From: an uncultured Gemmatimonadales bacterium
Lineage (GTDB): Bacteria; Gemmatimonadota; Gemmatimonadetes; Longimicrobiales; RSA9
Direction: 5' to 3'
Assembly: GCA_963798085.1 (NCBI GenBank)
Contig: CAWCRS010000007.1
Span: forward strand, 960,001 to 1,024,000
DNA: 64,000 bases
Shown: positions 50,266 through 64,000 of the stretch, piece by piece
Layout of the letters: each line of letters begins with the position of its first letter
Position numbering within the stretch: the first letter of the stretch is position 1
The notes under the pieces: model-generated
The model's database searches: none
What the model was told of the DNA's origin: nothing
What the model saw: only the letters and a program-made list of their open reading frames with translations
Translations under genes and position numbers: made by a program

Positions 50266-51226
50266 GCCGGGACCGGTGCGGCTGGTGGTGGAAGCCTCCG
50301 TGGCGGAGCGGCTGGACAGCTGGCTGGCGGCCCGCCTGCCCCAGCATTCGCGGTCGCGCATTGTGCAGCTGATCGAGCAGGGTCACGTGCGCGTGAACGG
50401 CGAGCAGCCGCGCAAGAGGGATCACCCGGCAGCGGGCGATGTCATCGAAATCGACATACCCCCACCCGAGCCGTCGGCGTTGCTGCCGGAAGCGATTCCG
50501 CTGCGCATCGCCTGGGAGGATGCGGATCTGCTCGTGGTGGACAAGCCGGCGGGCCTGGTGGTGCACCCGGCGCCGGGGCATCCGTCGGGAACGCTGGTGA
50601 ATGCGCTGCTGCACCACGCCGGCGATCTGCAGGGCATTGGCGGAGTCCGCCGGCCCGGGCTGGTGCACCGCCTGGATCGCGACACCTCCGGACTCATGCT
50701 GGTGGCGAAAACGGAGGCGGCGCAGCGCGCATTGTCGAGCGCGTTGAAGCGGCGGGAGATTCGTCGCCTGTATCAGGTTGCAGCCTGGGGCCACCTTCGA
50801 TCCGATACTGTGAAGGTGGAGGCGCCGATCGGGCGGTCGCCGTCCGATCGGAAACGCATGGCGGTAGTGGAGAGCGGGCGCGCAGCGGTCACGCATTTCG
50901 AGCGGCTGGAGCGCTGGCGAGGCGTGGATCTCCTGCAGGCAAGGCTGGAAACGGGGCGCACGCATCAGATTCGCGTTCACCTGTCGCACATCGGGCATTC
51001 CGTGGTCGGGGATCGGGCCTATGGCGGAGCAGACGATCGGGGCACGAGCGGACCGGCGCGCGTATGGGCGCGCGAGCTGTTGCAACGCGTGCACCGACAG
51101 TTTCTGCACGCGACAGAGTTGTCGTTCCGGCACCCGCGCACAGGGGAGATGATGCAACTGCGCTCGCCATTGCCCGCTGATCTGGAAGCTGCGGCCGAAT
51201 GGGCGCGGCAGACTTCGTCTGGTTGA
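50249..51226 (+). CDS. rluD: RluA/RluD-family pseudouridine synthase with S4 domain
   Basis: RLDSWL..SRS, KPAGLVVHP, HRLDRDTSG, TGRTHQIRVH; TTG start after GGAGGA. Confidence 0.92.
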   Translation: MQELTEPGPVRLVVEASVAERLDSWLAARLPQHSRSRIVQLIEQGHVRVNGEQPRKRDHPAAGDVIEIDIPPPEPSALLPEAIPLRIAWEDADLLVVDKPAGLVVHPAPGHPSGTLVNALLHHAGDLQGIGGVRRPGLVHRLDRDTSGLMLVAKTEAAQRALSSALKRREIRRLYQVAAWGHLRSDTVKVEAPIGRSPSDRKRMAVVESGRAAVTHFERLERWRGVDLLQARLETGRTHQIRVHLSHIGHSVVGDRAYGGADDRGTSGPARVWARELLQRVHRQFLHATELSFRHPRTGEMMQLRSPLPADLEAAAEWARQTSSG

Positions 51227-51252
51227 CCGCCTCGTGCGCGCGGACGTATTGT
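51223..51252 (+). promoter_or_regulatory. Putative sigma70 promoter for the che-mgl operon
   Basis: TTGACC-N18-TATTGT about 50 nt upstream of the cheW ATG. Confidence 0.35.
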
Positions 51253-51300
51253 TCCCGCAGCCTGCCAGTCAAGGCTCTCCCCGAGACAAAGTCGTGCACA

Positions 51301-51759
51301 ATGGAGCGTGACCTTTCCATCGGCGAATCCGCGCACGCGCCACCCTCGCCGTGGGCGTTCTTCGCCTGCAGTGGCAAGGGTTACGCAGTGCCGCTGGAAC
51401 GCGTCGATGAGATCGTGCCGCCGCAACCGCTCACGCGCATTCCCGGTTGCGGACCGTCCGTGTGCGGGCTGATCGGCCTGCGCGGCCGGGTGATCACCGT
51501 GTTCGATCTGGGCGTGCTGACAGGCGTGTCAGCAGCCGCGGCGCACCCGGATTATCGTGTGGTGCTCATGTGGCGGGGCGAGCGCGTGCTTGGCCTTGCC
51601 GTTGACGAAATGATCACGATCGCCTCGCCGGAAGAGGCGGAAGACATGGAAGCCGCCAGGGACGGCGGCGCCGACGCGGCGAACCGTGCAGTGAAGATCG
51701 GCGGCCGCGAATTCACCATACTCGACCCGGACGGACTGTTTGCCACGTTGCTTACCTGA
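51301..51759 (+). CDS. cheW: CheW-family coupling protein
   Basis: YAVP...V.EI, TRIPG....V.GLIGLRGRVITVFDL, GLAVD. Confidence 0.88.
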   Translation: MERDLSIGESAHAPPSPWAFFACSGKGYAVPLERVDEIVPPQPLTRIPGCGPSVCGLIGLRGRVITVFDLGVLTGVSAAAAHPDYRVVLMWRGERVLGLAVDEMITIASPEEAEDMEAARDGGADAANRAVKIGGREFTILDPDGLFATLLT

Positions 51760-51782
51760 CGGCCGGGCGTTGTGAGGAGGTC

Positions 51783-52145
51783 ATGGCACGAACCGTTCTG
51801 ATCTGCGACGACGCGCTCTTCATGCGGACGATGCTGGCTGAGATCATGGAGCAGGCGGGATTCGAAGTCGTGGCACAGGCTGCCACCGGCGCGGAAGCGG
51901 TGAAGCTGTATCGCGACCTGAAACCGGACCTGGTCACGATGGATATCATCATGCCCGACATGGGTGGCATTGAAGCCGTCAAGGCGATCGTCAACGAGCA
52001 CCCGGAAGCAAACATCGTGATGTGCAGTGCAATGGGGCAGCAGGCGCTGGTCATCGAGGCGATCCAGGCCGGGGCGAGGGATTTCGTGGTCAAGCCATTC
52101 CAGCCGGCGCGCGTCCTGGAGGCGGTTCACCGCGTTCTGGGCTGA
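51783..52145 (+). CDS. cheY: Single-domain response regulator CheY (Bacillus/Thermotoga/DifD-like)
   Basis: DDALFMR, PDLVTMDI.MP, CSAMGQ, DFVVKPF. Confidence 0.93.
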   Translation: MARTVLICDDALFMRTMLAEIMEQAGFEVVAQAATGAEAVKLYRDLKPDLVTMDIIMPDMGGIEAVKAIVNEHPEANIVMCSAMGQQALVIEAIQAGARDFVVKPFQPARVLEAVHRVLG

Positions 52146-52160
52146 TTGCGCGGAGGCGCT

Positions 52161-54053
52161 GTGCAATACGAGCGCTTTCTCGACCTTTACATCACGGAGA
52201 GCCGCGAGCATCTCGAGCTGCTGACGCGGAGCCTGCTGCATCTGGAGCAGGGCAAGGCGGACGCGGTCGACGATGCCTTTCGCGCGGCGCACACCATCAA
52301 GGGGTTAGCCGCCGCCATGGGTCATGCCGCGGCGGCCGCCACCGCGCACGAGCTGGAAGACCGGCTGTCCGCTGTGCGCGAGAAGAAGGAACCGGTGCAC
52401 GGCGAGCTGGTCGATGCGCTGCTCGCGGGACTGGACCGGCTCGAGCACGCCATTGAGAAGGCGGTCAGCGAACAGGGCGCGGCAGGCCTTGCGCTGGAAC
52501 GGATCGAAGGCGACGACGCCGCGTCCGGTGCGGCACACGGTGCAACCATGCCGGCGGGTGCCGCGGCTGCGACGGGGAACCCGCCTGGCGGGATTCCCGG
52601 ACCGGTTGTCACACCGGCGCCGCCGGGTACGCGCACGGTAGCTGTCGTTCACCTCGTGCCTGACGCGGCCCTGCCCGAAGCCAGGGTGCAGCTGATCCGG
52701 CGTGCGCTGCAGCGCGCGGGGGCATTGCTCGACTCCTCACCGGACATCGGCGAGCGCTACGGCGGCGAGCTGCGACTCTACCTGAACGCGGTAGCGGACG
52801 CGGCAACCGTGGAAGCGGCGATCCGTGCCTGCGGCGAAGTGGCGGACGTGCGCTTCGAGAAGCCACCACGGAGTGGTTCGAACGGGATTGGCGAAGCATC
52901 CTCAGCAACCGCAGCGAAGTTACCGGACGGAGGCGGCAGACCGGCTGCGACGCAAAGCCGCACGGTGCGCGTCGACCGCGCACGACTGGACGAGCTGGCC
53001 GAGGGTATCGCCGAGCTTTCCGTGCTGCAGGCGAGAGCGGCGCAGACGTCCATTGGCCTGGGCAGCGATCGCGCGTCCACCGTGCTCTCCGCGTTGCAGC
53101 GCACCGTGCTCGACATGCGCATGGTGCCGGTGTCCACTGCATTCGAGCGTTTCGGCAGGCTGGTGCGGGACACGGCGCGCGCGACCGGCAAGGATGTGGA
53201 CTTCACGCTGCAGGGCGGCGAGATCGAGCTGGATCAGGCCGTGCTCGACGCGCTCGTGGATCCACTGGTGCACGTGGTACGCAACGCCGTGGACCACGGC
53301 ATCGAGCCGGCGGCGGTACGTGAGCGCGCGGGCAAGGCGGGGCGGGGCAGCGTGCGCATCGAAGCGGAGCGCGAGCGCAACAGCGTGCGCATCCGCGTGA
53401 GTGATGACGGCCGCGGTGTTTCGCGCGATGTCGTCGCCGCACGCGGTCGCGCCATGGGTCTGCTGCCGGAGGATGCGAGTGAGCTTTCGGACGACGAAAT
53501 CCTGCGTCTGCTGTTCCACCCGGGCTTCTCCACCGCGGAGACGGTGACCGAGCTGTCCGGTCGCGGTGTGGGCCTCAATGTGGTGGCCGGCCGCATCCGC
53601 AGCCTGGGCGGCGCCATCGAATTGAGCACGGCTGCGGGCACGGGTACCACCTTCACGCTGCGCGTTCCCGTGACACTCGCGCTGACGCACGCGCTGCGCA
53701 TCCGGCTGGGCGAGGAAGAGTACGCGCTGCCCATCACGCACGTGAGCGAGGTGATCCCGCTGGAGGGTGATGCGCGCAGTGAGCGCGGCGGTGTGCGCGT
53801 GCGCGGCGATGTGGTGCCGCTCGTCGAGCTGGGGCGTGTTCTGGGCGCGCGCGGCGGCGAGCCCAGCGCGGCCATTGTTGCCGAGCTGGGCGGCAGACGC
53901 GTCGCGCTGGCGGTGGATCGCGTGCTGGGCCACGAACAGATACTGGTGAAGACATTCAATGCGCCGGTGGACACGCTGCCCGTCTTTTCGGGCGCGACCC
54001 TCCTGCCCGATGGGCGGCCGGCTTTGCTGATCGACCCGCTCAGCGTAGTCTGA
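52161..54053 (+). CDS. cheA: Chemotaxis histidine kinase CheA
   Basis: HPt FRAAHTIKG; VRVD..RLD; RMVP; HVVRNAVDHGIE; DDGRG; GFSTA...SGRGVG; C-terminal CheW-like domain. Confidence 0.95.
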   Translation: MQYERFLDLYITESREHLELLTRSLLHLEQGKADAVDDAFRAAHTIKGLAAAMGHAAAAATAHELEDRLSAVREKKEPVHGELVDALLAGLDRLEHAIEKAVSEQGAAGLALERIEGDDAASGAAHGATMPAGAAAATGNPPGGIPGPVVTPAPPGTRTVAVVHLVPDAALPEARVQLIRRALQRAGALLDSSPDIGERYGGELRLYLNAVADAATVEAAIRACGEVADVRFEKPPRSGSNGIGEASSATAAKLPDGGGRPAATQSRTVRVDRARLDELAEGIAELSVLQARAAQTSIGLGSDRASTVLSALQRTVLDMRMVPVSTAFERFGRLVRDTARATGKDVDFTLQGGEIELDQAVLDALVDPLVHVVRNAVDHGIEPAAVRERAGKAGRGSVRIEAERERNSVRIRVSDDGRGVSRDVVAARGRAMGLLPEDASELSDDEILRLLFHPGFSTAETVTELSGRGVGLNVVAGRIRSLGGAIELSTAAGTGTTFTLRVPVTLALTHALRIRLGEEEYALPITHVSEVIPLEGDARSERGGVRVRGDVVPLVELGRVLGARGGEPSAAIVAELGGRRVALAVDRVLGHEQILVKTFNAPVDTLPVFSGATLLPDGRPALLIDPLSVV

Positions 54054-54056
54054 GTC

Positions 54057-54674
54057 ATGGATCCGAGATCGCTCGACGAGCTGCACCTCGACGCACTGCG
54101 TGAGACCGCGAACATTGGCGCGGGTCACGCCGCCACCGCGCTGTCCCGGCTCACCGGGCGGCGCGTCATGGTCAGCGTGCCCGAGGTGAGCATCCTGCCG
54201 CTGGAACAGGTGGGCGGCATGCTGGGCGATCCGGGCGAAGTCGTGTCCGCGGTGATCGTGACTGTGGAAGGCGACGCGACGGGTCGCACACTGCAGATCT
54301 TTCAGGGCGCCACCGCGGCCAAGCTGGTTTCGATGCTGCTCAACATGCGCGAGCCGGTGTTCCCGGACGGCTTCGGTGTACTCGAGCGGTCCGCCGTGAA
54401 AGAGATCGGCAACGTCATCGTGGGCGCGTACCTCAACGCGCTCGCCGACTTCACCGGCATGACGCTGTCAATGTCGGTGCCCGCTTTCGCGATCGACATG
54501 GCGGCGGCGATCCTGATGACGAGCTACCTGAACTTCGGCAGCGAAGATGATTTCGTGCTGTCGATCGGGACTCGCCTGGTAGTGGATGGCAGTGAAGAGC
54601 TGCGCGCGCATTTCCTGCTGATTCCGGACGACGATTCACTCAACCGGATCCTGCGATCGTTGCGCGTGGTGTGA
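54057..54674 (+). CDS. cheC: CheC-family phosphatase
   Basis: Two E..N motifs: DALRETANIGAGHAATALS and SAVKEIGNV. Confidence 0.92.
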   Translation: MDPRSLDELHLDALRETANIGAGHAATALSRLTGRRVMVSVPEVSILPLEQVGGMLGDPGEVVSAVIVTVEGDATGRTLQIFQGATAAKLVSMLLNMREPVFPDGFGVLERSAVKEIGNVIVGAYLNALADFTGMTLSMSVPAFAIDMAAAILMTSYLNFGSEDDFVLSIGTRLVVDGSEELRAHFLLIPDDDSLNRILRSLRVV

Positions 54675-57385
54675 CGGTGGAGGCGGCGCTGGCCGATTCG
54701 AACCTCTTCCTTCCCTGGACAGATCGACCGGGTCCGCAGGCGGGCGCGCCGCGATCGGATCGCGATGTCACGATTCTGCGCGGGCTGGCGCGTCGCATTC
54801 CCGCGAATGATGCGGGCGCGCACAACAACCTGGGCGTGGTCTTCTTCCAGAAAGGCATGCACGCGGATGCCGCGGAGCAGTTCGAGCGCGCGCTCGAGCT
54901 GGATCCGCGCATGCAGGTCGCAGAGCGCAACCTGCAGATCGTGTATTTCGGCACCGACTACTACGACCGCACACTCGAACAGCTGAACCAGCGACTGGCC
55001 GCGAACGCAGACGACGCGGCCGCGCGCAGCCAGCTGGCCCGCACATACCTGTTCGGCGGCGACGCGCGCGCGGCGCTCCGCGAGTGGCAGCGACTGGTGA
55101 CGGAGCGACCGGGCGACCCGGAGGCCGAAGCGTGGATCGCGCGCGCGGAGGTACGCCGCGGCGATCTCGACGGCGCCGTCCAGGTGCTCGCGCGCGCCGC
55201 GGAGAAACACCCGGACAATGCGCGTCTCGCTCTGCAAATGGGAGAGATCCTGTACCTGCGCGGCATGGCGGCGGAAGCATCGCGCTGGCTGGAGCGCTGC
55301 CTGGCGCTGGACGAGAATCATGCGGAAGCGCATCACCTCATCGCATTCGTCTACGGCGAGCTGGGCCATGCGGCACGCGCGCAGGAGCACGCGGCGCGCG
55401 CCGCCGCGCTGAATCCGAGCTTCGCGAAGGCGGACCGCAGTCTCTCACTGGATCGCTACAACGAGGCGAGGTACAGCGAGCTGACCGGGGATCGCGGCAA
55501 GCCCGTCGTTACCGAAGGCGGTGGCCTGGTCCATTACAACATGGGACTCGCCCTGCGCCAGAAGGCACTGTACGAGGAAGCGCTGAAGGAATTCAAGCTG
55601 GCGGATGAGCGAGGCGAGGATCGCTACCTCGTGATGCAGGCGCAGGCCGAGATGATGCTGCTGCTCGGCAACGGTGGACAGGCGGCGTCGCTTTACACGG
55701 AATTGATCGAGGAGGAGCCCGCCAGCCCGAAGCTCTGGAACGAGCTGGGTGTGGCGCAGCATCAGCTGGGCCGGCTGGCGGATGCCGAGGCATCGTATGC
55801 GCGCGCCATCGGACTCGATCCGAAATACACGCTGGCGTGGAACAACCTGGGTGTGGTGCGACACCATCGCACGCAGGAAGGCAGTGAAGAAGCGCTCGAG
55901 TCTGCGCTCGCGGCGGGACGCTCACTGGCCGAGATCTGGCGCAACCTCGGCTGGCTGCACCACCTGCGAAAGGACTGGGTCGGCGCGGAGCACGCCTATC
56001 GGCAGGCCCTGGACGTGGACACGCGACTGGCCACCGCATGGACGGGTCTCGGCATGCTGTTCCTTGAGCGCGGCCGAGCCGAGCCGGCGAGCACCGCGCT
56101 GGCCCGCGCGGTCGAGTGTGATCCCAACCTGCCGGAAGCGCATTATCACTACGCTTTCGCTCTGTCGGCGAGCGGAGATTATCCTGCAGCATTGCGTGAG
56201 ACGAGTCGCGCACTCGAACTGAACCCGTACATCACACTGCCGCGCTTCCGACTGCTGATCGACCTGCAGTTCGAGGATGCCGCCGTGACCGCGCCGGAGC
56301 TGGATGCGCCTGAACGGCTGATGGCGGGCGCGACCGTCGAGCATTTCGACTTCGAGGCGGAGGACATCAGCCTGGCGCTCGAGGCGGTCGAGCCGCGCGT
56401 GCCGGAAGCGTCGAAGGCCGAGCCCGAGCTGTCACTGCCCTCGAAGCCGGCATCGATCGAATGGCTGGCGGCGGCGAGAGCCTCGCTGCACAGCGGCCAC
56501 TATGCGGAGGCCATGGCGGATGTGCAGCGCGCGGTGGCGTTGGGCGCGAACCGCATCGAGGCGCAGCTGCTCCAGGGCGAAATCCACCTGCTGAGCGGCG
56601 CGGCGGGCGAGGCGGTGGACCGGTTCGACGAAGTGCTGCACGAGCTGCAATGGTCGGTCCCGCAGGCATGGCTGGACGAGAAGGACATTCGCGTGCGCGC
56701 CCTGGCAGGCATGGCCAGGTCGCTGCTCGATCTGGAACGCGCGCCCGAGGCGGTGGATTTCGCGCGCAAGGCACGGGAGCTGGCGCCATCGGCCGAAACT
56801 GCATCATTGGAGGCCGATGCGCTGCTTTCGGTGGGCGTGCCCCTGGAAGCAGCCGGCGTGCTGGAACGGGCACTGGCAGAGAATCCGGAAAACGTGGAGC
56901 TGCGCACGCGACTGGGCGCGGCCTGGCTGCAGGCGGGTGATGTAGCGAGAGCGGAGCCCATGCTGCGCGGCGCATTGGAGCGGGAGAGCGAGCTGCCGGC
57001 GGCGCGCGCCACGCTGGGCAGGCTGCTGGCGATCGAGGGGCGCAGCACCGACGCGGAACAGGAGTACCGCGCGGCGCTGCACGTGATACCGAGCTTCACG
57101 GACGCGGCCATTGGCCTGGCCGATCTCCTGGCCGAGCAAGGACGGCTCGATGAGGCGATCAATGTGCTGGCGACATTCCTCGAGGCGGACCCCTACAGCT
57201 TCTTCGGTCTGGTGCGCCTGGGTGACGTGCTCTGGCGCGCCGGCCGCGAGATCGAAGCGGGGTTCGCCTACCGGCGCATCCTGCACTTCGACCCCGGCCA
57301 CGAGGAGGCACGCGAAGGACTGGAGCGGCTGGAACCGCACGAGGAAGACGTCGATGCATCCTGGACTGTCGTGTTAGCGGAGTAA
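54671..57385 (+). CDS. Large cytoplasmic multi-TPR protein
   Basis: Many TPR-like repeats (AHNNLGVVF, WNELGV, AWNNLGVV, AWTGLG); no signal peptide; GTGA overlap with cheC. Confidence 0.9.
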   Translation: MTVEAALADSNLFLPWTDRPGPQAGAPRSDRDVTILRGLARRIPANDAGAHNNLGVVFFQKGMHADAAEQFERALELDPRMQVAERNLQIVYFGTDYYDRTLEQLNQRLAANADDAAARSQLARTYLFGGDARAALREWQRLVTERPGDPEAEAWIARAEVRRGDLDGAVQVLARAAEKHPDNARLALQMGEILYLRGMAAEASRWLERCLALDENHAEAHHLIAFVYGELGHAARAQEHAARAAALNPSFAKADRSLSLDRYNEARYSELTGDRGKPVVTEGGGLVHYNMGLALRQKALYEEALKEFKLADERGEDRYLVMQAQAEMMLLLGNGGQAASLYTELIEEEPASPKLWNELGVAQHQLGRLADAEASYARAIGLDPKYTLAWNNLGVVRHHRTQEGSEEALESALAAGRSLAEIWRNLGWLHHLRKDWVGAEHAYRQALDVDTRLATAWTGLGMLFLERGRAEPASTALARAVECDPNLPEAHYHYAFALSASGDYPAALRETSRALELNPYITLPRFRLLIDLQFEDAAVTAPELDAPERLMAGATVEHFDFEAEDISLALEAVEPRVPEASKAEPELSLPSKPASIEWLAAARASLHSGHYAEAMADVQRAVALGANRIEAQLLQGEIHLLSGAAGEAVDRFDEVLHELQWSVPQAWLDEKDIRVRALAGMARSLLDLERAPEAVDFARKARELAPSAETASLEADALLSVGVPLEAAGVLERALAENPENVELRTRLGAAWLQAGDVARAEPMLRGALERESELPAARATLGRLLAIEGRSTDAEQEYRAALHVIPSFTDAAIGLADLLAEQGRLDEAINVLATFLEADPYSFFGLVRLGDVLWRAGREIEAGFAYRRILHFDPGHEEAREGLERLEPHEEDVDASWTVVLAE

Positions 57386-57388
57386 TTC

Positions 57389-58519
57389 ATGGCGATCGAG
57401 GGACCGCTCCGCGAACTGGGCATTCAGGATGTGCTGCAGCTGCTCGAGCTGGCGCAGAAGACCGGTGTGCTCACGGTGCGCAGCGAGCGGCTCAATGATG
57501 AAGCCATCGTGCACTTCAGCCGCGGCGAGATCGTGTTCGCGGTGCGCCGCCGCTCGACTCGCCGGCTGGGCCAGCTGCTGATCCGCGCGGGTAAACTGAC
57601 GCGCGGTGATCTCGACCGCGCCCTCGAGAAGCAGCGCTCCGATCCCACCAAGCGCCTTGCCGAGATCTTCGTGGACATGGGCCTGGTCAGCGAAGAAGAG
57701 CTGGCGAGGCAGCTGCGCTTCCAGATGGAAGAGACCGTCTACGAGCTGATGTCGTGGGAAGAGGGCTACTTCAAGTTCGAGGAGCGTGCAGAAATCGCCG
57801 GCCAGCGACTGCTGGCGAGAGTGCGTGTGGACTCGCTCCTCATGGAGGGTGCCCGCCGGCTGGACGAATGGTCGCGGCTCGAGTCGAAGGTACCGACGCC
57901 AGAAGCGATTCCCTCGCTGGCCCCCGCATCGGAGCGCGACGTCACGCCGCTCGACCTGTCGCCGGAAGAATGGGAAGTGCTGGCGGAGATCGATGGCGAA
58001 CGCGATGTGCGTCAGATTGCGGCCGACCTGGGACGCAGTGCGTTCGATGTGGGCAAGACGCTGTACGGTCTGGTCGCGGCCGGCATTGCGCAGGTCCAGA
58101 TCCGGCACACGCGCATGCCGGAGGAACAACTCCGCCGCTCCATCATTGAAGTGCACGATCTGCTGTCGGCGGGCCAGATCGAGCGCGCACGCAAACTCGC
58201 GGCTGACCTGGAATCGGCGCATCCCGATCGCGCGGATCTCGCCGTCCTGAGCGGACGCGTACTGGCCGCGCAGGGCCGCCTGCGCGCGGCGGCGGAAGCG
58301 CTCACTCGCGCCGTGACACTGGACCCGCTGTCCTCCGAAGCTCACTATGAGCTTGGTTTCTGTGCCGCGAAAACCGGCGACTTCGAGCGCGCTGTGAGGG
58401 CGTGGGAGACATTCGTGCGTTTGTCCCCCGCCGGCGAAGAGCGACAGAACGCCTCCAACGGGCTCGCGGCGGCACGCACGTTATCGCAGATCCTCGACAG
58501 GACGTCGAAACGGACATGA
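57389..58519 (+). CDS. DUF4388 (PatA-N-like) protein with MshEN motif, wHTH-like segment and TPRs
   Basis: G.L......DVLQLL....KTGVL; RLGQLLIRAGKL....LDRALEKQ; W.EG.F.F; LLMEGARRLDEW; C-terminal TPRs. Confidence 0.85.
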   Translation: MAIEGPLRELGIQDVLQLLELAQKTGVLTVRSERLNDEAIVHFSRGEIVFAVRRRSTRRLGQLLIRAGKLTRGDLDRALEKQRSDPTKRLAEIFVDMGLVSEEELARQLRFQMEETVYELMSWEEGYFKFEERAEIAGQRLLARVRVDSLLMEGARRLDEWSRLESKVPTPEAIPSLAPASERDVTPLDLSPEEWEVLAEIDGERDVRQIAADLGRSAFDVGKTLYGLVAAGIAQVQIRHTRMPEEQLRRSIIEVHDLLSAGQIERARKLAADLESAHPDRADLAVLSGRVLAAQGRLRAAAEALTRAVTLDPLSSEAHYELGFCAAKTGDFERAVRAWETFVRLSPAGEERQNASNGLAAARTLSQILDRTSKRT

Positions 58520-59794
58520 AGACACCGGCCCCGGCAGACCTGCATCGCTGGAGCGAAGAGCTGGCGAGGAATCCGACGTCGCTCGCGTTCCTGCCGCTCG
58601 CGCGCGCCTATCGACGTCTGGGGCGCCGCGATCTCGCGCTGCAGCTCTGCCTGCGCGGGCTCGAACATCACCCCGCGCACGTCGAAGCACACGCACTGCT
58701 GGCGCTGCTGTACTTCGAGTCCGGCGAGCGCGCCCGGGCAGCGGACGAATGGGCCACCGTGCTGCGCCTCAAGCCCGGCAACTTCGAAGCGCTGCGCGGC
58801 ATGGGCTTCCGCTATCTCGAGCAGGGCGACATGGCGAGGGCGAGGCAGCACCTCGAGCGCGCGGGCTTGATCCGCCCCGATGATGCGACCGTGCAGGAAG
58901 CCTTGCGCCTGATCCGCCACCGCGAATCCAGCACCATTTCCGGCACGCGGCCCGCCGCCTCGCCCGGCGGCCCGACGAGTGCGCCGGCAGCGCCACGAGC
59001 GGCGTCGCCTGCACCCGGACCGACTGCGCCGGCACCCGCAGCGGCCGCGCAGAGCAGTGCGCCCCCCGCCGCTGCGGCGCCAGCGTCGAGACCACCCTCG
59101 CCAGCGGCGAGCCGGCCAGCTGGCGCGCCCCCGGCCCCGCCGCGCGCCGCGGCGCCGGCCGCCACCACCTCCTCGAGGCCGACACAGCCGGCGACCAGGC
59201 CAGAGTCCCGCAGCGCCAGCCCGCCCAGGCCGGGCGTGATTGCGCCCAAGCCGGCGGCAGGCATCCCGGCTGCGGCCACGGCCGGCTGTACCGTCGTCAC
59301 CGGCGCCTGCGCCGACGCCAGCGCAGGCCGCGGCTGGCCCACCGACCCCGAAGCGAGCGCCGCAGGCCGCTCCGCGACCGGTCGAGCCGAAGCGGATGGA
59401 GCCGGCGCGCGAGCTGGTGGCGCCACCGGATCCGGAGCGCGTGTTCGAGTCTCTGTCAGGGGCGACGCCGCTGCTCGGTGTTCTGCTGCTCGACCGCCGC
59501 GGCCTCGTGCTCGCAGGCGGACTGCGCAGTGCCGCCGCAGGTGCGGCCGAAGACCTCGGCGCGATCCTGGGCGGCGCGATTGACGAAGCGGTGCGCACGG
59601 TACTGCACCTCGAGCTGGGCGAGTGGAAGGGGCTCATGCTGGATTGCGCAGAGGCTGTGCTGCATGTGGCGCCGGTGGGTGACGACGCGCTCGTCGTCAT
59701 CGCGGCGCGCAAGGACTCGCCGGCCGGCTGGACCATGCGCGCGGCCGAGCACGCGGCTGCGCTGGCCGAGCGCTTCCTGGGGGTCTACTCATGA
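58516..59794 (+). CDS. TPR - Pro/Ala linker - Roadblock/LC7 fusion; probable +1 frameshift near 59260-59285
   Basis: N-terminal TPRs and PA-rich linker in one frame; the linker continues in the next frame into a roadblock domain (GVLLLDRRGLVLA...LELGEW). Confidence 0.75.
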
Positions 59795-60156
59795 GCGACG
59801 TCTTCCGCGATGCGGTGCTGAACCTGAGTCACGTGCCGGGCGTCAGCGGTGCGCTCATTGTGGACGCGCAGGCGGGCGTGGCCGTGGTCGAAGAATTGAA
59901 AACGAACGTGTCGGGCACTGCGCTGGCCGCGCTGGCGACCGCGCTGTATGCGCGCACGGCGCAAGCCAGCGAAGCGGCGGAATACGGCAGCCTCGGTGGC
60001 CTGCAGCTGGATGCGGAGCGTGGCCGTGTGCTGATCGCGAGCGCCGGTGAGCTGCTGATTGTGGCGCTGACACAGGATGATGCGCAGCTCGGCCGTGTGC
60101 GCCTCGAGGCGCAGCGGGCGGCGCGCGCCGTGCGCGCGGAGCTGGAGAGCGGCTGA
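59791..60156 (+). CDS. Roadblock/LC7-domain protein (MglB/MglC-like)
   Basis: L..VPGVSGALIVD..G.., LAALA, G.L, L.....G, LG...L pattern. Confidence 0.85.
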   Translation: MSDVFRDAVLNLSHVPGVSGALIVDAQAGVAVVEELKTNVSGTALAALATALYARTAQASEAAEYGSLGGLQLDAERGRVLIASAGELLIVALTQDDAQLGRVRLEAQRAARAVRAELESG

Positions 60157-60650
60157 TGCGCAGCTCCGAGCTGCCCGTGCTGGTGTCCGCGCTGGGAAAG
60201 CCCATCGAGCGCTTCGTACGCGAATCGCGCGTGCGCATTGCACTGCTGATCACGGGCAGCGGTCAGGTGCTGGCGCAACACGGCTTCACCAGCAGCTACG
60301 AGATCATGAACGTCGCCTCGCTGGCTGCCGCCACGCACGCATCGTCACGCGCACTCGCCCAGCTGCTGCGCGCGGGGAACTGGCTGCACCTGCACCATCA
60401 GGGCGCGCGCCAGCAGCTTTTCCTCGCCACGCTCGATACTCCCATCGAGAAGCTGATCCTCGTCGTCATCTTCGACGCCGAGTCGTCGCTCGGGCTGGTG
60501 CAGTTCTTCTTCGGCCAGCTCGCGGAACACGTGCGTCGCATGCCCGAGCTGGCGGCCGCTACGCGCTCCGCCGATCAGCGCAGCTTCGAGCGCGACCTGG
60601 AAGCCGGACTCAGGCGCGCGTTTTCTCCGGAAACCGGCAGTGAGGCCTGA
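60156..60650 (+). CDS. mglB: MglB-like GTPase-activating Roadblock protein
   Basis: ALLI..SGQ..AQ.G, ASLAA......ALA.LL, LHHQG, IL.VIFD..SSLGLV; immediately upstream of mglA. Confidence 0.82.
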   Translation: MRSSELPVLVSALGKPIERFVRESRVRIALLITGSGQVLAQHGFTSSYEIMNVASLAAATHASSRALAQLLRAGNWLHLHHQGARQQLFLATLDTPIEKLILVVIFDAESSLGLVQFFFGQLAEHVRRMPELAAATRSADQRSFERDLEAGLRRAFSPETGSEA

Positions 60651-60651
60651 C

Positions 60652-61263
60652 GTGTCGCTGGTCAATTACTCCACGCGCGAGATCACCTGCAAGATCGTGT
60701 ACTACGGGGCGGGCCGCTCCGGCAAGACCAGCAACCTGCAATACGTGCACGCGTTCGTGCCGGAAGACCGCCGGGGCGCCATGGTGTCGCTGGCCACGGA
60801 GACGGAGCGCACGCTCTTCTTCGATTTCCTGCCACTCGATCTGGGCCTGATTTCGGGATTCCGCACACGCATTCAGCTGTACACGGTGCCGGGTCAGGTC
60901 TACTACGGCGCGACGCGGCGGCTGGTGCTGCGCGGCGCAGATGGCGTGGTGTTCGTCGTCGACTCACAGCGCGAGCGCTTCGAGGAAAACTTCGAGAGCT
61001 TCCGCGCACTGCACGAGCATCTGCTCGAGGAAGGCCTCGATCCCCGCGATTTCCCGCTGGTGCTGCAATACAACAAGCGCGATCTGCCGGGTGTCATGGG
61101 ACTCGATGAGCTGGAGGATGTCTTCAATTTTCGCGAGTTGCCATCGTTTCCCGCGGTGGCCGTGGAAGGCGAAGGTGTGTTCCCCACACTGAAGAGTGTG
61201 AGCACCCTCGTGCTCCAGGGTCTGTCGCGGCGGTTCCGCGCTCAGGGCAGTCCGTCACCCTGA
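60652..61263 (+). CDS. mglA: MglA-family small Ras-like GTPase
   Basis: NY..REI.CKIVYYG.G.SGKT, SLATETERTLFFDFLP, LYTVPGQVYY, DGVVFV.DS, NKRD. Confidence 0.95.
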   Translation: MSLVNYSTREITCKIVYYGAGRSGKTSNLQYVHAFVPEDRRGAMVSLATETERTLFFDFLPLDLGLISGFRTRIQLYTVPGQVYYGATRRLVLRGADGVVFVVDSQRERFEENFESFRALHEHLLEEGLDPRDFPLVLQYNKRDLPGVMGLDELEDVFNFRELPSFPAVAVEGEGVFPTLKSVSTLVLQGLSRRFRAQGSPSP

Positions 61264-61275
61264 CGGAAGCGGGCC

Positions 61276-62976
61276 ATGACGGGTCGCGGGCTCGATCACC
61301 GTTTTTCCTTCGAGAACTTCGTCGTGGGTGGCGCAAACCGGCTGGCGGCCGCGGCGGCCCGCCGTGTGGCGGAAGCACCGGGCAAGGCCTATAACCCGCT
61401 GTTTGTGTACGGCGCATCCGGGCTGGGCAAGACGCACCTGCTGCTGGCAATTGGTAATCAGGCGTTACGCCGGCAGCCTGCGCTGCGCGTGGTGTTCGAG
61501 ACGGTGGAGCGGGCCGTGCATCAGATGGCGCCCGCGGCAGACGAAACCGGTGAAATCCGCACCGCACAGCTGCTGCTGCTGGATGACGTGCAGTACCTGA
61601 CCGGCGACCGGCGCGCACAGGAGACGCTGCTGATCTGGTGGGACGAGCTGGCGTCGCGCGGCGCGCAGATCGTACTGGCGGGCGACCGGCCACCGACCGA
61701 AATCGATCGCCTCGATCACCACCTGCTCTCGCGCTTCGCCGCCGGGCTGGTCGCGGACGTGGGGCCGCCCGATTACGAGACGCGCATTGCGCTGGTGCAG
61801 CGCAAGGTGGAAGAGCGCGGACACGCGCTGCAGCCCGGTGTGGCCGACGCCATCGCGCGGGTTGCCTTCTCCAACGTGCGCGAGCTGCAGGGTGGACTCA
61901 ACCGCGTGATCGCGGCGCAGGAACTGGACGGCAATCCGGTGCGGCCGGAGGACATTCCCGGCCTGCTGGGTGTGGCCGCGGCGAGAGCGGACAGCGAAGA
62001 GTTCGATTCGTTCTTCGAGGAAGTCGCGGGCGCGGTCGCGGAAATCGCGACGCGCGTGACGCCCGAACAGCGTCTGGTGGATGCGATCCTGCGTTATGAG
62101 GGCGAAGGCTATCGCACGTTCCGCCTGGAAGTCGCGCTGCGCACACCGCCGGGCGAGCGCGAAGTCGTGGAGCTGGTCGAGCGCTACACCGCCGATGTCG
62201 AACGATTGCAGGCAATCGCCGCGGAGATCCGCAGCCTCGATGGCGATGCGCCCGAGCTGGCAAGGGCCGACCTGCTGCGCAATCCGGATCGCGTGCTGGA
62301 AGCCGAGACACTGGTGGCGCAGGTGCACGAGCGGCTGCGCCCGCTGCCCGAGCCGACGCCCGGGCCCGGTCTCGACAGCCTGGGACTGGACGAGGAGAGT
62401 CCCGCGCTCGATGCCGTGCGTGCCGTGGCGCGCAGGCCGGGCGCGCGACCCGGCCCGCTGTACGTGCGCGGAGAGCCCGGCTCGGGCAAGAGCGCGCTGC
62501 TGCACGCACTGGCGCGTGAAGTCCGGCGCGAGCTGCCCATGCTGCCTATTGCCGTGCTCGGCGCGCAGCAGATGGCAGGGGAAATCGAGGCGGCGATCAA
62601 CGCCCGGCATGCGGATGCATGGCGGGCGCGCTACCGTCGGGCCCGCCTGCTGGTGATCGACGACTTCGATCGCATGCATGCTGACAGCGCTGTTCGCGAC
62701 GAGCTGTTTTGCCTGTTCGACGGTGTGCGCCGCAGCGGCGGGCAGATCGTGCTCGCGGGCGTGCGCGACCCTGCGGCGAATGGCGGGGCCGACCGCCTGG
62801 GCGGCCTGGTGGCCGAGTCGGATGTCGCGGACATGAAGCCGGCCAGCACGGGGCTGGACGGTGGCCGCGCGGGCGGCGAGCCGGCTGACCTGCGCGACGT
62901 GTGGTTCCTGAACCGCGAGAAGTCGCTGCCCCGCTGGCCGTACATCGAGGACTGGCTCGTGACGGAGCTGGACTAA
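61276..62976 (+). CDS. Tandem DnaA/Hda-type AAA+ protein lacking DnaA domains I, II and IV
   Basis: Module 1: FSFENFVVG.ANRLA, YNPLFVYGASGLGKTHLL, LLLDDVQ, DRPP, SRF, NVRELQG. Module 2: PLYVRGEPGSGKS.LL.A, LLVIDD, ELF..FD, GGQIV. Confidence 0.85.
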   Translation: MTGRGLDHRFSFENFVVGGANRLAAAAARRVAEAPGKAYNPLFVYGASGLGKTHLLLAIGNQALRRQPALRVVFETVERAVHQMAPAADETGEIRTAQLLLLDDVQYLTGDRRAQETLLIWWDELASRGAQIVLAGDRPPTEIDRLDHHLLSRFAAGLVADVGPPDYETRIALVQRKVEERGHALQPGVADAIARVAFSNVRELQGGLNRVIAAQELDGNPVRPEDIPGLLGVAAARADSEEFDSFFEEVAGAVAEIATRVTPEQRLVDAILRYEGEGYRTFRLEVALRTPPGEREVVELVERYTADVERLQAIAAEIRSLDGDAPELARADLLRNPDRVLEAETLVAQVHERLRPLPEPTPGPGLDSLGLDEESPALDAVRAVARRPGARPGPLYVRGEPGSGKSALLHALAREVRRELPMLPIAVLGAQQMAGEIEAAINARHADAWRARYRRARLLVIDDFDRMHADSAVRDELFCLFDGVRRSGGQIVLAGVRDPAANGGADRLGGLVAESDVADMKPASTGLDGGRAGGEPADLRDVWFLNREKSLPRWPYIEDWLVTELD

Positions 62977-62977
62977 G

Positions 62978-64000
62978 ATGGCTATCAAGGGCGCGCTGCG
63001 CGAAGCCAGCCTCGCCGAGGTCTGCCAGCTGCTGGCGCTCGGGCTGAAGACGGGATGCCTTTCCGTCGCAGACCGCTCGCGCTTCGGCCAGATCTACTTC
63101 GATCGCGGCAAGATCACGTTCGCACGCATCGTCAACCGCCGCGACCGCCTGGGCGATCTGCTGATCGCTGATGGTGTGCTCGAGCCCGACCAGCTGGAAG
63201 AGCTGCTCAGCATACAATCGCGACATCCGGAACGACGCCTCGGCGAGCTGATGCTGGAGCGCGACCTGATCCAGGAGCCGGATCTGCAACGCTACATCCG
63301 CATGCAGATCGAGGAAGCCGTGTGCCATCTGTTCACCTGGACGCGCGGACACTTCTACTTCGAGGCCGGCGAAAAGCCCGATCCGCGTGAGACGCCCGTG
63401 CCCATGAACGCGGAGAGCCTGCTGCTCGAAGCCGCACGGCGGGTCAATGAGTGGAGCCTCATCCAGAAACGCATTCCCTCGCTCGAGCTGGTGTTCGAAG
63501 TCGATCGCGATCGGCTGGCCGCATCCACCGCGCAGCTGACGGAAGAACAGCGCGCCGTCGCCGAGCTGCTCGATGGCCGGCGCTCCGTGCATGACCTGAT
63601 GCGCCAGACAGGCCTGGGCGAGTTCGACGCGGGTAAGGCGCTGTTCGGGCTGGTGCAGGCAGGCTTCGCACGGCGTACGGGTCGCCAGACGGAAGGTCCG
63701 GAACGGCCCCGCGAATCGGAGATCCAGGAGCGGCACAACCTGGGCGTCGCGTTCTTCCGCTCGGGCATGCTGGACGATGCGGCGAGGGAATTCCGCCGCG
63801 TGCTCGAGATCGCTTCCGATGATCTGCGTTCACGGTTTCACCTCGCCATGATCTCAATGCGACAGGGCGAGTTCCGCGACGCGGCCCGCGAGCTGGTGCA
63901 GCTGGCGAGGCGGCACGGGCCGCGCTACCCCGTGATGGTGAACCTGGCCACTTCGTTCCGCCACATGGACCGGCTCGATGATGCGCTGTTAGCCCTGAGC
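62978..64000 (+). CDS. Second DUF4388-MshEN-wHTH-TPR protein (3'-partial; absent from the ORF track)
   Basis: My translation is open to the window end: MAIKGALREASLAEVCQLLALGLKTGCL...RLGDLLIADGVL....LEELLSIQ...LLLEAARRVNEW...HNLGVAFFRSG. Confidence 0.88.
   Translation, partial: MAIKGALREASLAEVCQLLALGLKTGCLSVADRSRFGQIYFDRGKITFARIVNRRDRLGDLLIADGVLEPDQLEELLSIQSRHPERRLGELMLERDLIQEPDLQRYIRMQIEEAVCHLFTWTRGHFYFEAGEKPDPRETPVPMNAESLLLEAARRVNEWSLIQKRIPSLELVFEVDRDRLAASTAQLTEEQRAVAELLDGRRSVHDLMRQTGLGEFDAGKALFGLVQAGFARRTGRQTEGPERPRESEIQERHNLGVAFFRSGMLDDAAREFRRVLEIASDDLRSRFHLAMISMRQGEFRDAARELVQLARRHGPRYPVMVNLATSFRHMDRLDDALLALS

Follow-up and report, generated by a model that had tools for sequence, protein, structure and literature searches.

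A DnaA-derived tandem ATPase without DNA-binding domains, encoded in a chemosensory-MglA-PATAN operon of Gemmatimonadota

The described proteins closest to the one analyzed here, the product of a gene that we call X, are the replication initiator DnaA and its paralog Hda. Domain III of DnaA (PF00308; PDB 8bv3, 8btg, 2z4r, 2hcb) has the same fold as X and shares the full set of nucleotide-site motifs with the first of its two ATPase modules. X differs from DnaA, however, in lacking domains I and IV, in the duplication of the core, in the replacement of W267 and of the residues that bind single-stranded DNA, in having a novel linker and two novel peptides, and in being located outside the rpmH-dnaA-dnaN locus. 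Hda (TIGR03420; PDB 5x06, 3bos) is likewise a DnaA-clade AAA+ protein with no DNA-binding domain, and a further likeness is that the face donating the arginine finger is kept in the second module of most relatives of X. Unlike Hda, X has no clamp motif, has an active-looking site in module 1 and is encoded in a signaling operon, and in sequence it is much nearer to DnaA than to Hda (E values of 1e-48 and 1e-4, respectively). X does not fit the type II, p97-like double AAA+ proteins, which retain two ring-forming modules of the classic clade: both modules of X belong to the DnaA clade, and the second of them has a full site in only 16 of 248 proteins and can be lost.

The gene neighborhood of X resembles a second group of known systems. 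The Frz-MglA/MglB system of Myxococcus and the PATAN regulators of cyanobacteria share with it a chemosensory core, MglA, Roadblock proteins of the GAP-like kind, TPR proteins and PATAN domains, whereas in the present case all of these are found in one operon, together with CheC and CheD. The PATAN domains of Synechocystis bind PilB1 and PilC, and neighborhoods combining mglAB with PATAN genes have been noted, according to the passages covered of 10.1101/2021.06.11.447907. Neighborhoods of mglA and PATAN genes were also reported in PMC4316618, which lists a Gemmatimonadetes MglA and, in the passages covered, makes no mention of DnaA. No DnaA-type ATPase appears in the Myxococcus or cyanobacterial systems in any of the literature passages covered. 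A search of the literature available without subscription found no published description of the X family. Within that scope, X is an undescribed family and adds a new component to a known kind of polarity system.

The DNA analyzed, referred to below as the window, is a stretch of 64,000 nucleotides from an uncultured Gemmatimonadales bacterium. The operon occupies its final part, with the following features.

51199..54674, forward strand: cheW-like, cheY, cheA and cheC genes at the head of the operon (the cheW-like label comes from position and from relatives)
54671..58519, forward strand: a large TPR protein and the first DUF4388-MshEN-like-TPR protein
58402..60650, forward strand: TPR-Roadblock (two frames), Roadblock and MglB-like Roadblock genes
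60640..61263, forward strand: mglA, operon copy
61276..62976, forward strand: gene X, a tandem DnaA-domain-III protein of 566 residues without domain I or IV
62978..64000, forward strand: downstream DUF4388 (PATAN) protein with an MshE-related c-di-GMP motif and TPRs, continuing to 64600, past the end of the window

Beyond the window end, open reading frames read as cheR, cheD and cheB complete the series, so that the order is cheW-like-cheY-cheA-cheC-TPR-DUF4388-TPR, then TPR-Roadblock-Roadblock-mglB-like-mglA-X-DUF4388-TPR, then cheR-cheD-cheB, all tightly packed on the same strand. The MshE-related c-di-GMP motif scores above the cut-off in both DUF4388 proteins. A second MglA is encoded outside the operon (G000:C7:1264207-1264797). 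The initial annotation placed X directly after mglA, and the 61263 end of mglA and the 61276 start of X bear this out. Among 80 loci, mglA precedes X in 68; of the other 12, seven begin at a contig edge and five have upstream DNA with no mglA match. The downstream gene is the more constant neighbor. A DUF4388 gene follows X in 78 of the 80 loci, the remaining two stopping at a contig edge. Of 77 loci that could be scored, 57 have the stop codon of X overlapping the start codon of DUF4388. X is tied more tightly to the downstream DUF4388 gene than to mglA.

Two irregularities were seen among the Roadblock genes. At 58402-59794 of the window, the TPR part is encoded in one frame and the Roadblock part in another, and a single open reading frame covers both in all seven relatives checked (7/7). 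The cause is either a frameshift or faulty assembly; the stretch is rich in GC and encodes many prolines. Furthermore, Gemmatimonas-type loci (L060, L064, L071, L074, L205 and similar ones) gave no matches to the TPR-Roadblock, Roadblock and mglB genes, and often none to cheR; mglA, X and both DUF4388 genes are kept.

X itself is a real two-module protein derived from DnaA, and is neither an initiator nor an Hda. Two stretches of X match Bac_DnaA (Pfam, E 1.2e-63), DnaA_N and Bac_DnaA_C (PF08299) find no match in it, and the translation begins at the domain III boundary. The domain I and domain IV HMMs matched none of 267 tandem sequences (the number collected before removal of duplicates). 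A domain IV hidden in the linker or tail of X was sought and rejected: the HMMs, hhalign of the linker and module 2 against domain IV of the host DnaA (no alignment, E 0.17) and structure searches of the linker all failed to find one. The scores of X fall below the cut-offs of both the DnaA and the Hda models (291 bits against 343.9 for TIGR00362, and 129.9 bits against 194.8 for TIGR03420). The one Bac_DnaA_C match in the host genome is a canonical dnaA of 459 residues with domain IV, on contig C3, and the open reading frame that follows it reads by eye as DnaN at its start. Full-length homologs of X with about 60-70% identity and the same length come from many independent assemblies, which rules out misassembly or a chance fusion. 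These results agree with the initial annotation, in which X was two DnaA-like AAA+ modules without a DNA-binding domain, starting at the domain III boundary, and not an initiator; a domain IV helix-turn-helix, a genome with X as its sole dnaA and a misassembled tandem, any of which would have told against it, were not found.

The full-length AlphaFold2 model (pLDDT 88.7, pTM 0.53) has two P-loop domains with a helical domain between them, and the pTM value leaves the packing of module 1 against module 2 undefined. The best structural match of the model is domain III of Bacillus subtilis DnaA (Foldseek TM 0.89 to 8bv3, rmsd 1.9 A). The parts of the protein are as follows.

61291..61971, forward strand: module 1 (residues ~6-232), a complete DnaA domain IIIa/b with a shortened initiator-specific motif and with the single-stranded-DNA residues replaced
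61996..62049, forward strand: conserved peptide 1 (residues 241-258, EFxxFLxD/E..V helix), a predicted docking element
62053..62340, forward strand: helical linker unit (residues ~260-355)
62371..62835, forward strand: module 2 (residues ~366-520), a degenerate domain IIIa
62914..62973, forward strand: conserved peptide 2 (residues 547-566, EKxxWxWP...IEE), a predicted docking element

The strongest indication of what X does comes from relatives that have lost parts of it. Fifteen genome regions, chosen as seemingly atypical or complete, were inspected. In three genomes (G106, G049, G084) module 2 is missing and the protein has just module 1, the linker and the C-terminal peptide; the C-terminal peptide ends 23 of 34 single-module sequences. 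In three more (G036, G047, G114) both ATPases are gone and the rest of the operon persists; the space from mglA to the DUF4388 gene holds an open reading frame of 69-73 residues, which adjoins mglA and carries nothing more than the EFxxFxxD helix and the WxWP...IEE tail. With matrices made from the tandem proteins, both peptides in all three of these small frames outscored 300 of 300 shuffles, and the same matrices gave no score on the host DnaA; the three frames come from two genera only, two of them being close relatives within one genus. Both peptides also persist in relatives without an adjacent mglA. They have low pLDDT in the full-length model of X, as expected of segments that would fold on a partner. 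The series from two modules to one module to peptides alone points to the two peptides as the minimal parts, and X is likely to be an adaptor with a regulatory ATPase, because both cores are lost in relatives in which the two peptides stay.

Several minor features of these loci may be recorded here. In two genomes with a peptide-only frame, the downstream DUF4388 protein appears to lack the MshEN-like insertion (L197:9148-10440, L198:7532-8824). In G114 a 34-residue open reading frame made of a short repeated unit (L199:8988-9092) lies between the peptide-only frame and the DUF4388 gene. A complex prediction for the G114 peptide-only protein and the N-terminal part of its own DUF4388 protein scored 0.15 against a mark of 0.32, and counts as evidence neither way. 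Finally, a separate Gemmatimonadota protein (L209:6363-8363 in G050; P0249, P0257) joins an N-terminal domain, with a weak Fe_hyd_lg_C match in P0249, to one copy of the linker and has no ATPase; in P0257 the C-terminal peptide of X is present as well. Proteins of this type may also dock at the site that X would use.

In our view X probably serves a chemosensory-MglA-PATAN circuit as an ATP-switched adaptor, with peptides that would dock on operon partners, and the circuit probably steers type IV pilus polarity. The two peptides would form the binding core of X. To judge from gene linkage alone, the most likely peptide partner is the adjacent DUF4388 protein. Module 1, from its residues, would bind and hydrolyze ATP and oligomerize head to tail; the arginine finger would be supplied by another module 1 or, in most relatives, by module 2. 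The latter option cannot apply to X, because module 2 has no arginine finger in the 26-member subclade to which X belongs. The nucleotide state would then control the clustering or the exposure of the peptides. The pilus motor may be the output, an analogy drawn from PATAN and MglA proteins in other systems.

The residues behind this proposal were compared across 248 tandem proteins, duplicates removed, whose first module is nearly complete. The sensor I and sensor II positions are taken as those of DnaA, and the assignment of residues to faces, which follows a figure legend and general background, is presumptive. B. subtilis numbering was transferred through the host DnaA. The roles of residues in single-stranded DNA binding and in the DnaA filament follow the passages covered of PMC6669920 and PMC10721633. 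In X, module 1 carries K52, D103/D104, D137, R153 and R202, and motif mapping confirms the initial annotation that Walker A, Walker B, sensor I, arginine finger and sensor II are all present; the initiator-specific motif is about 6-7 residues short. Across the family, Walker A, Walker B, sensor I and sensor II occur together in module 1 of 233 of the 248 proteins, and the arginine finger in 222. Module 2 of X keeps GSGKS and VIDD. The initial annotation had it lacking the lid and sensor II, which is correct for X, where sensor I and the arginine finger are gone as well, but does not extend to the family, in which 140 of 248 proteins keep sensor II in module 2; the arginine finger is present there in 212. 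Every one of the 26 members of the subclade of X lacks the finger, lid and sensor II in module 2 and has a shortened initiator-specific motif in module 1. Outside that subclade, in 222 relatives, module 2 keeps R202, R206, R260, R264 and L269 at 94-97%. These patterns suggest a division of labor, with the nucleotide pocket in module 1 and the finger-donating face in module 2.

The initial annotation offered two roles for X, a regulator of DnaA and a polar scaffold. The first, in which X would be an Hda-like or co-polymerizing protein that links a polarity switch to replication initiation, is unlikely in our judgment, and the second is favored. Module 1 is about 41-43% identical to domain III of the host DnaA and keeps R264, L269, G317 and R321, by which it could still co-assemble with DnaA, and the finger-donor residues of module 2 in the 222 relatives would suit such a role. 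An AU test also allows descent together with Gemmatimonadota (host) DnaA (p 0.43). Against this, module 1 has other residues in place of R206 and H231, so that on sequence comparison the DnaA filament face is no longer complete, and none of the 248 tandem proteins has W267. The Hda-type clamp-binding motif was found in 0 of 263 tandem proteins (by a regular-expression search), and the Hda cut-off is missed. Both ATPases are dispensable in an operon that survives without them, X is missing altogether from 52 of 151 genomes, and the surroundings of X in this genome showed no gene for replication, the relatives having been screened with the window's own operon proteins only. The finding that DUF4388 rather than mglA is the closest gene partner likewise bears on the choice between the two roles.

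It is also improbable that X is an active AAA+ remodeler that dismantles or resets an MglA-Roadblock-PATAN complex, with the peptides recruiting the substrate. The tandem arrangement and the catalytic residues of module 1 (in 233 of 248) fit such an activity, and a fold search on X lists p97/Rix7-type double ATPases after DnaA. These matches, however, have TM of about 0.3 and rmsd of 16-20 A, reflecting only the presence of two AAA+ folds, and module 2, or both modules, can be lost. Moreover, ATPases of the initiator clade work as switches and form open filaments.

A further reading, which we hold highly improbable, makes X a sensor of single-stranded DNA, for example of DNA imported by the pilus, that reports to the polarity module through the surface that binds the DnaA-trio. 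In its favor, 124 of 248 proteins retain the I190/K222 pair in their second module, which also conserves R202 and E228, and 28 of 36 archaeal-type fusions have the pair. Against it, the pair is absent from module 1 in 248 of 248 (compared with its presence in 154 of 156 canonical DnaAs) and from both modules in all 26 subclade members, including X (at positions N187, I190 and K222 X has H/A/D in its first module and G/E/D in its second), and in the passages covered of PMC6669920 the binding of single-stranded DNA by DnaA requires a filament loaded through domain IV.

The linker connects X to a wider set of proteins. It has no Pfam family; modeled alone it is a helical domain (pLDDT 86) whose best PDB matches are generic helical bundles (best Z 6.4, rmsd 6-8.5 A), with no Foldseek match at E 0.001 and no usable match in the Atlas. 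A profile search identified it as one copy of a repeat that is present in multiple copies in long rod proteins of Thermoplasmata. Of twenty linker-profile matches that were looked up, three belong to clusters bearing Thermoplasmata or Thermoplasmatota names and two are named Methylacidiphilaceae. Ten multi-repeat proteins that were tested scored 120-255 bits forward and less than 6 bits reversed, and hhalign gave a probability of 90% for the linker against the rod repeat. Some rod proteins begin with an N-terminal domain, continue with up to about eight repeats and also contain a DnaA domain III that lacks domain IV, as well as zinc ribbons; P0305 and P0309, named Thermoplasmata, are rod-type DnaA-core proteins. 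Other DnaA cores without domain IV are fused to a T2SSE-type ATPase or to DUF835, which PMC5847659 describes as an inactivated KaiC-like domain. These database proteins, and the fusions that bear MshEN, share with X a DnaA core without domain IV, and the rod-type ones the same helical repeat, but the Thermoplasmata fusions differ in having a single ATPase after the repeats, zinc ribbons or DUF835, and the single-stranded-DNA residues. At the W267 position, 33 of the 36 archaeal-type fusions have G, a further likeness to X. The C-terminal peptide of X was absent from the two fusions tested, P0144 and P0291.

We tentatively propose, as a reading that we hold possible though somewhat doubtful, that X represents, in Gemmatimonadota, a class of signaling switches that spans two domains of life. 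In this class DnaA would have lost its DNA-binding domains, and a helical repeat common to the members would connect its ATPase core with PATAN, MshEN, KaiC-like and pilus-motor modules, both in bacteria and in archaea of the Thermoplasmata; the ATPase of X would polymerize, cluster the two docking peptides and gate a second, chemosensory-controlled MglA polarity circuit. In the trees modules 1 and 2 fall together on the same side of a branch (98/93) and do not join the clade of the host DnaA, and a grouping of X with the archaeal and MshEN fusions was not rejected by the AU test (p 0.52), any more than that with host DnaA; these tests and trees involve long branches, and the 52-row tree excluded Hda and several long rows. 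Escherichia coli Hda is placed apart from X in the tree, though on a long branch, and the 80 canonical dnaA loci from the archaeal-context scan served as an outgroup only. The archaeal N-terminal domain gave nothing against PATAN in a full-length hhalign comparison and E 0.027, in register, with a cut profile, and its Atlas values were 0.88 for DUF2226 and 0.84 for PatA_N; that it may be PATAN/DUF2226-like is a lead only. An apparent fusion of X with DUF4388 (P0307) was set aside, being a single record with no contig and with the start of DUF4388 missing.

Two fusions deserve separate mention. P0308, named Thermoplasmata, joins a DnaA domain III to a T2SSE-type secretion or pilus ATPase. Eight proteins of about 1900 residues (P0291-P0298) combine MshEN with a pair of DnaA domain III modules and a long rod of helices, without the X repeat, and their two modules group together apart from X, suggesting an independent duplication.

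If these proposals are correct, a replication initiator ATPase has been reused outside DNA replication, in a polarity circuit that is common in the Gemmatimonadota, a widespread but little-studied phylum. The shared repeat connects the X family with DnaA-core proteins of archaea. Many such proteins are named chromosomal replication initiators by automatic annotation, which is probably wrong.

Proteins of the tandem form make up a conserved family in Gemmatimonadota. With a profile built from the linker, which is specific to the family, X was found in 99 of 151 sampled genomes, almost always as a single copy; ten of the 52 genomes without it are listed as single-contig, and there was no match in several families among the 151. 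Named homologs are from Gemmatimonadota, apart from one locus titled Myxococcales and a few with no phylum name. The DUF4388 gene occurs in 104 of the 151 genomes, including all 99 that have X, and MglA in 123, usually as two paralogs; since the sampled genomes are related, these co-occurrence counts, and those that follow, are not independent and are descriptive. By overlap of the genome lists, an MCP is present in 93 of the 99 X-positive genomes and pilM in 96. pilM does not single out pili as the output, because 47 of the 52 genomes without X have it too. A flagellar output was considered and finds no support in co-occurrence, with a flagellin-family match in only 26 of the 99 by the same overlap.

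A last observation concerns the DNA beyond the window. Open reading frames resembling mraZ, rsmH, ftsL, ftsI, murE and murF, as read from N-terminal translations, lie at G000:C7 ~1041500-1048300, beginning about 14 kb past cheB.
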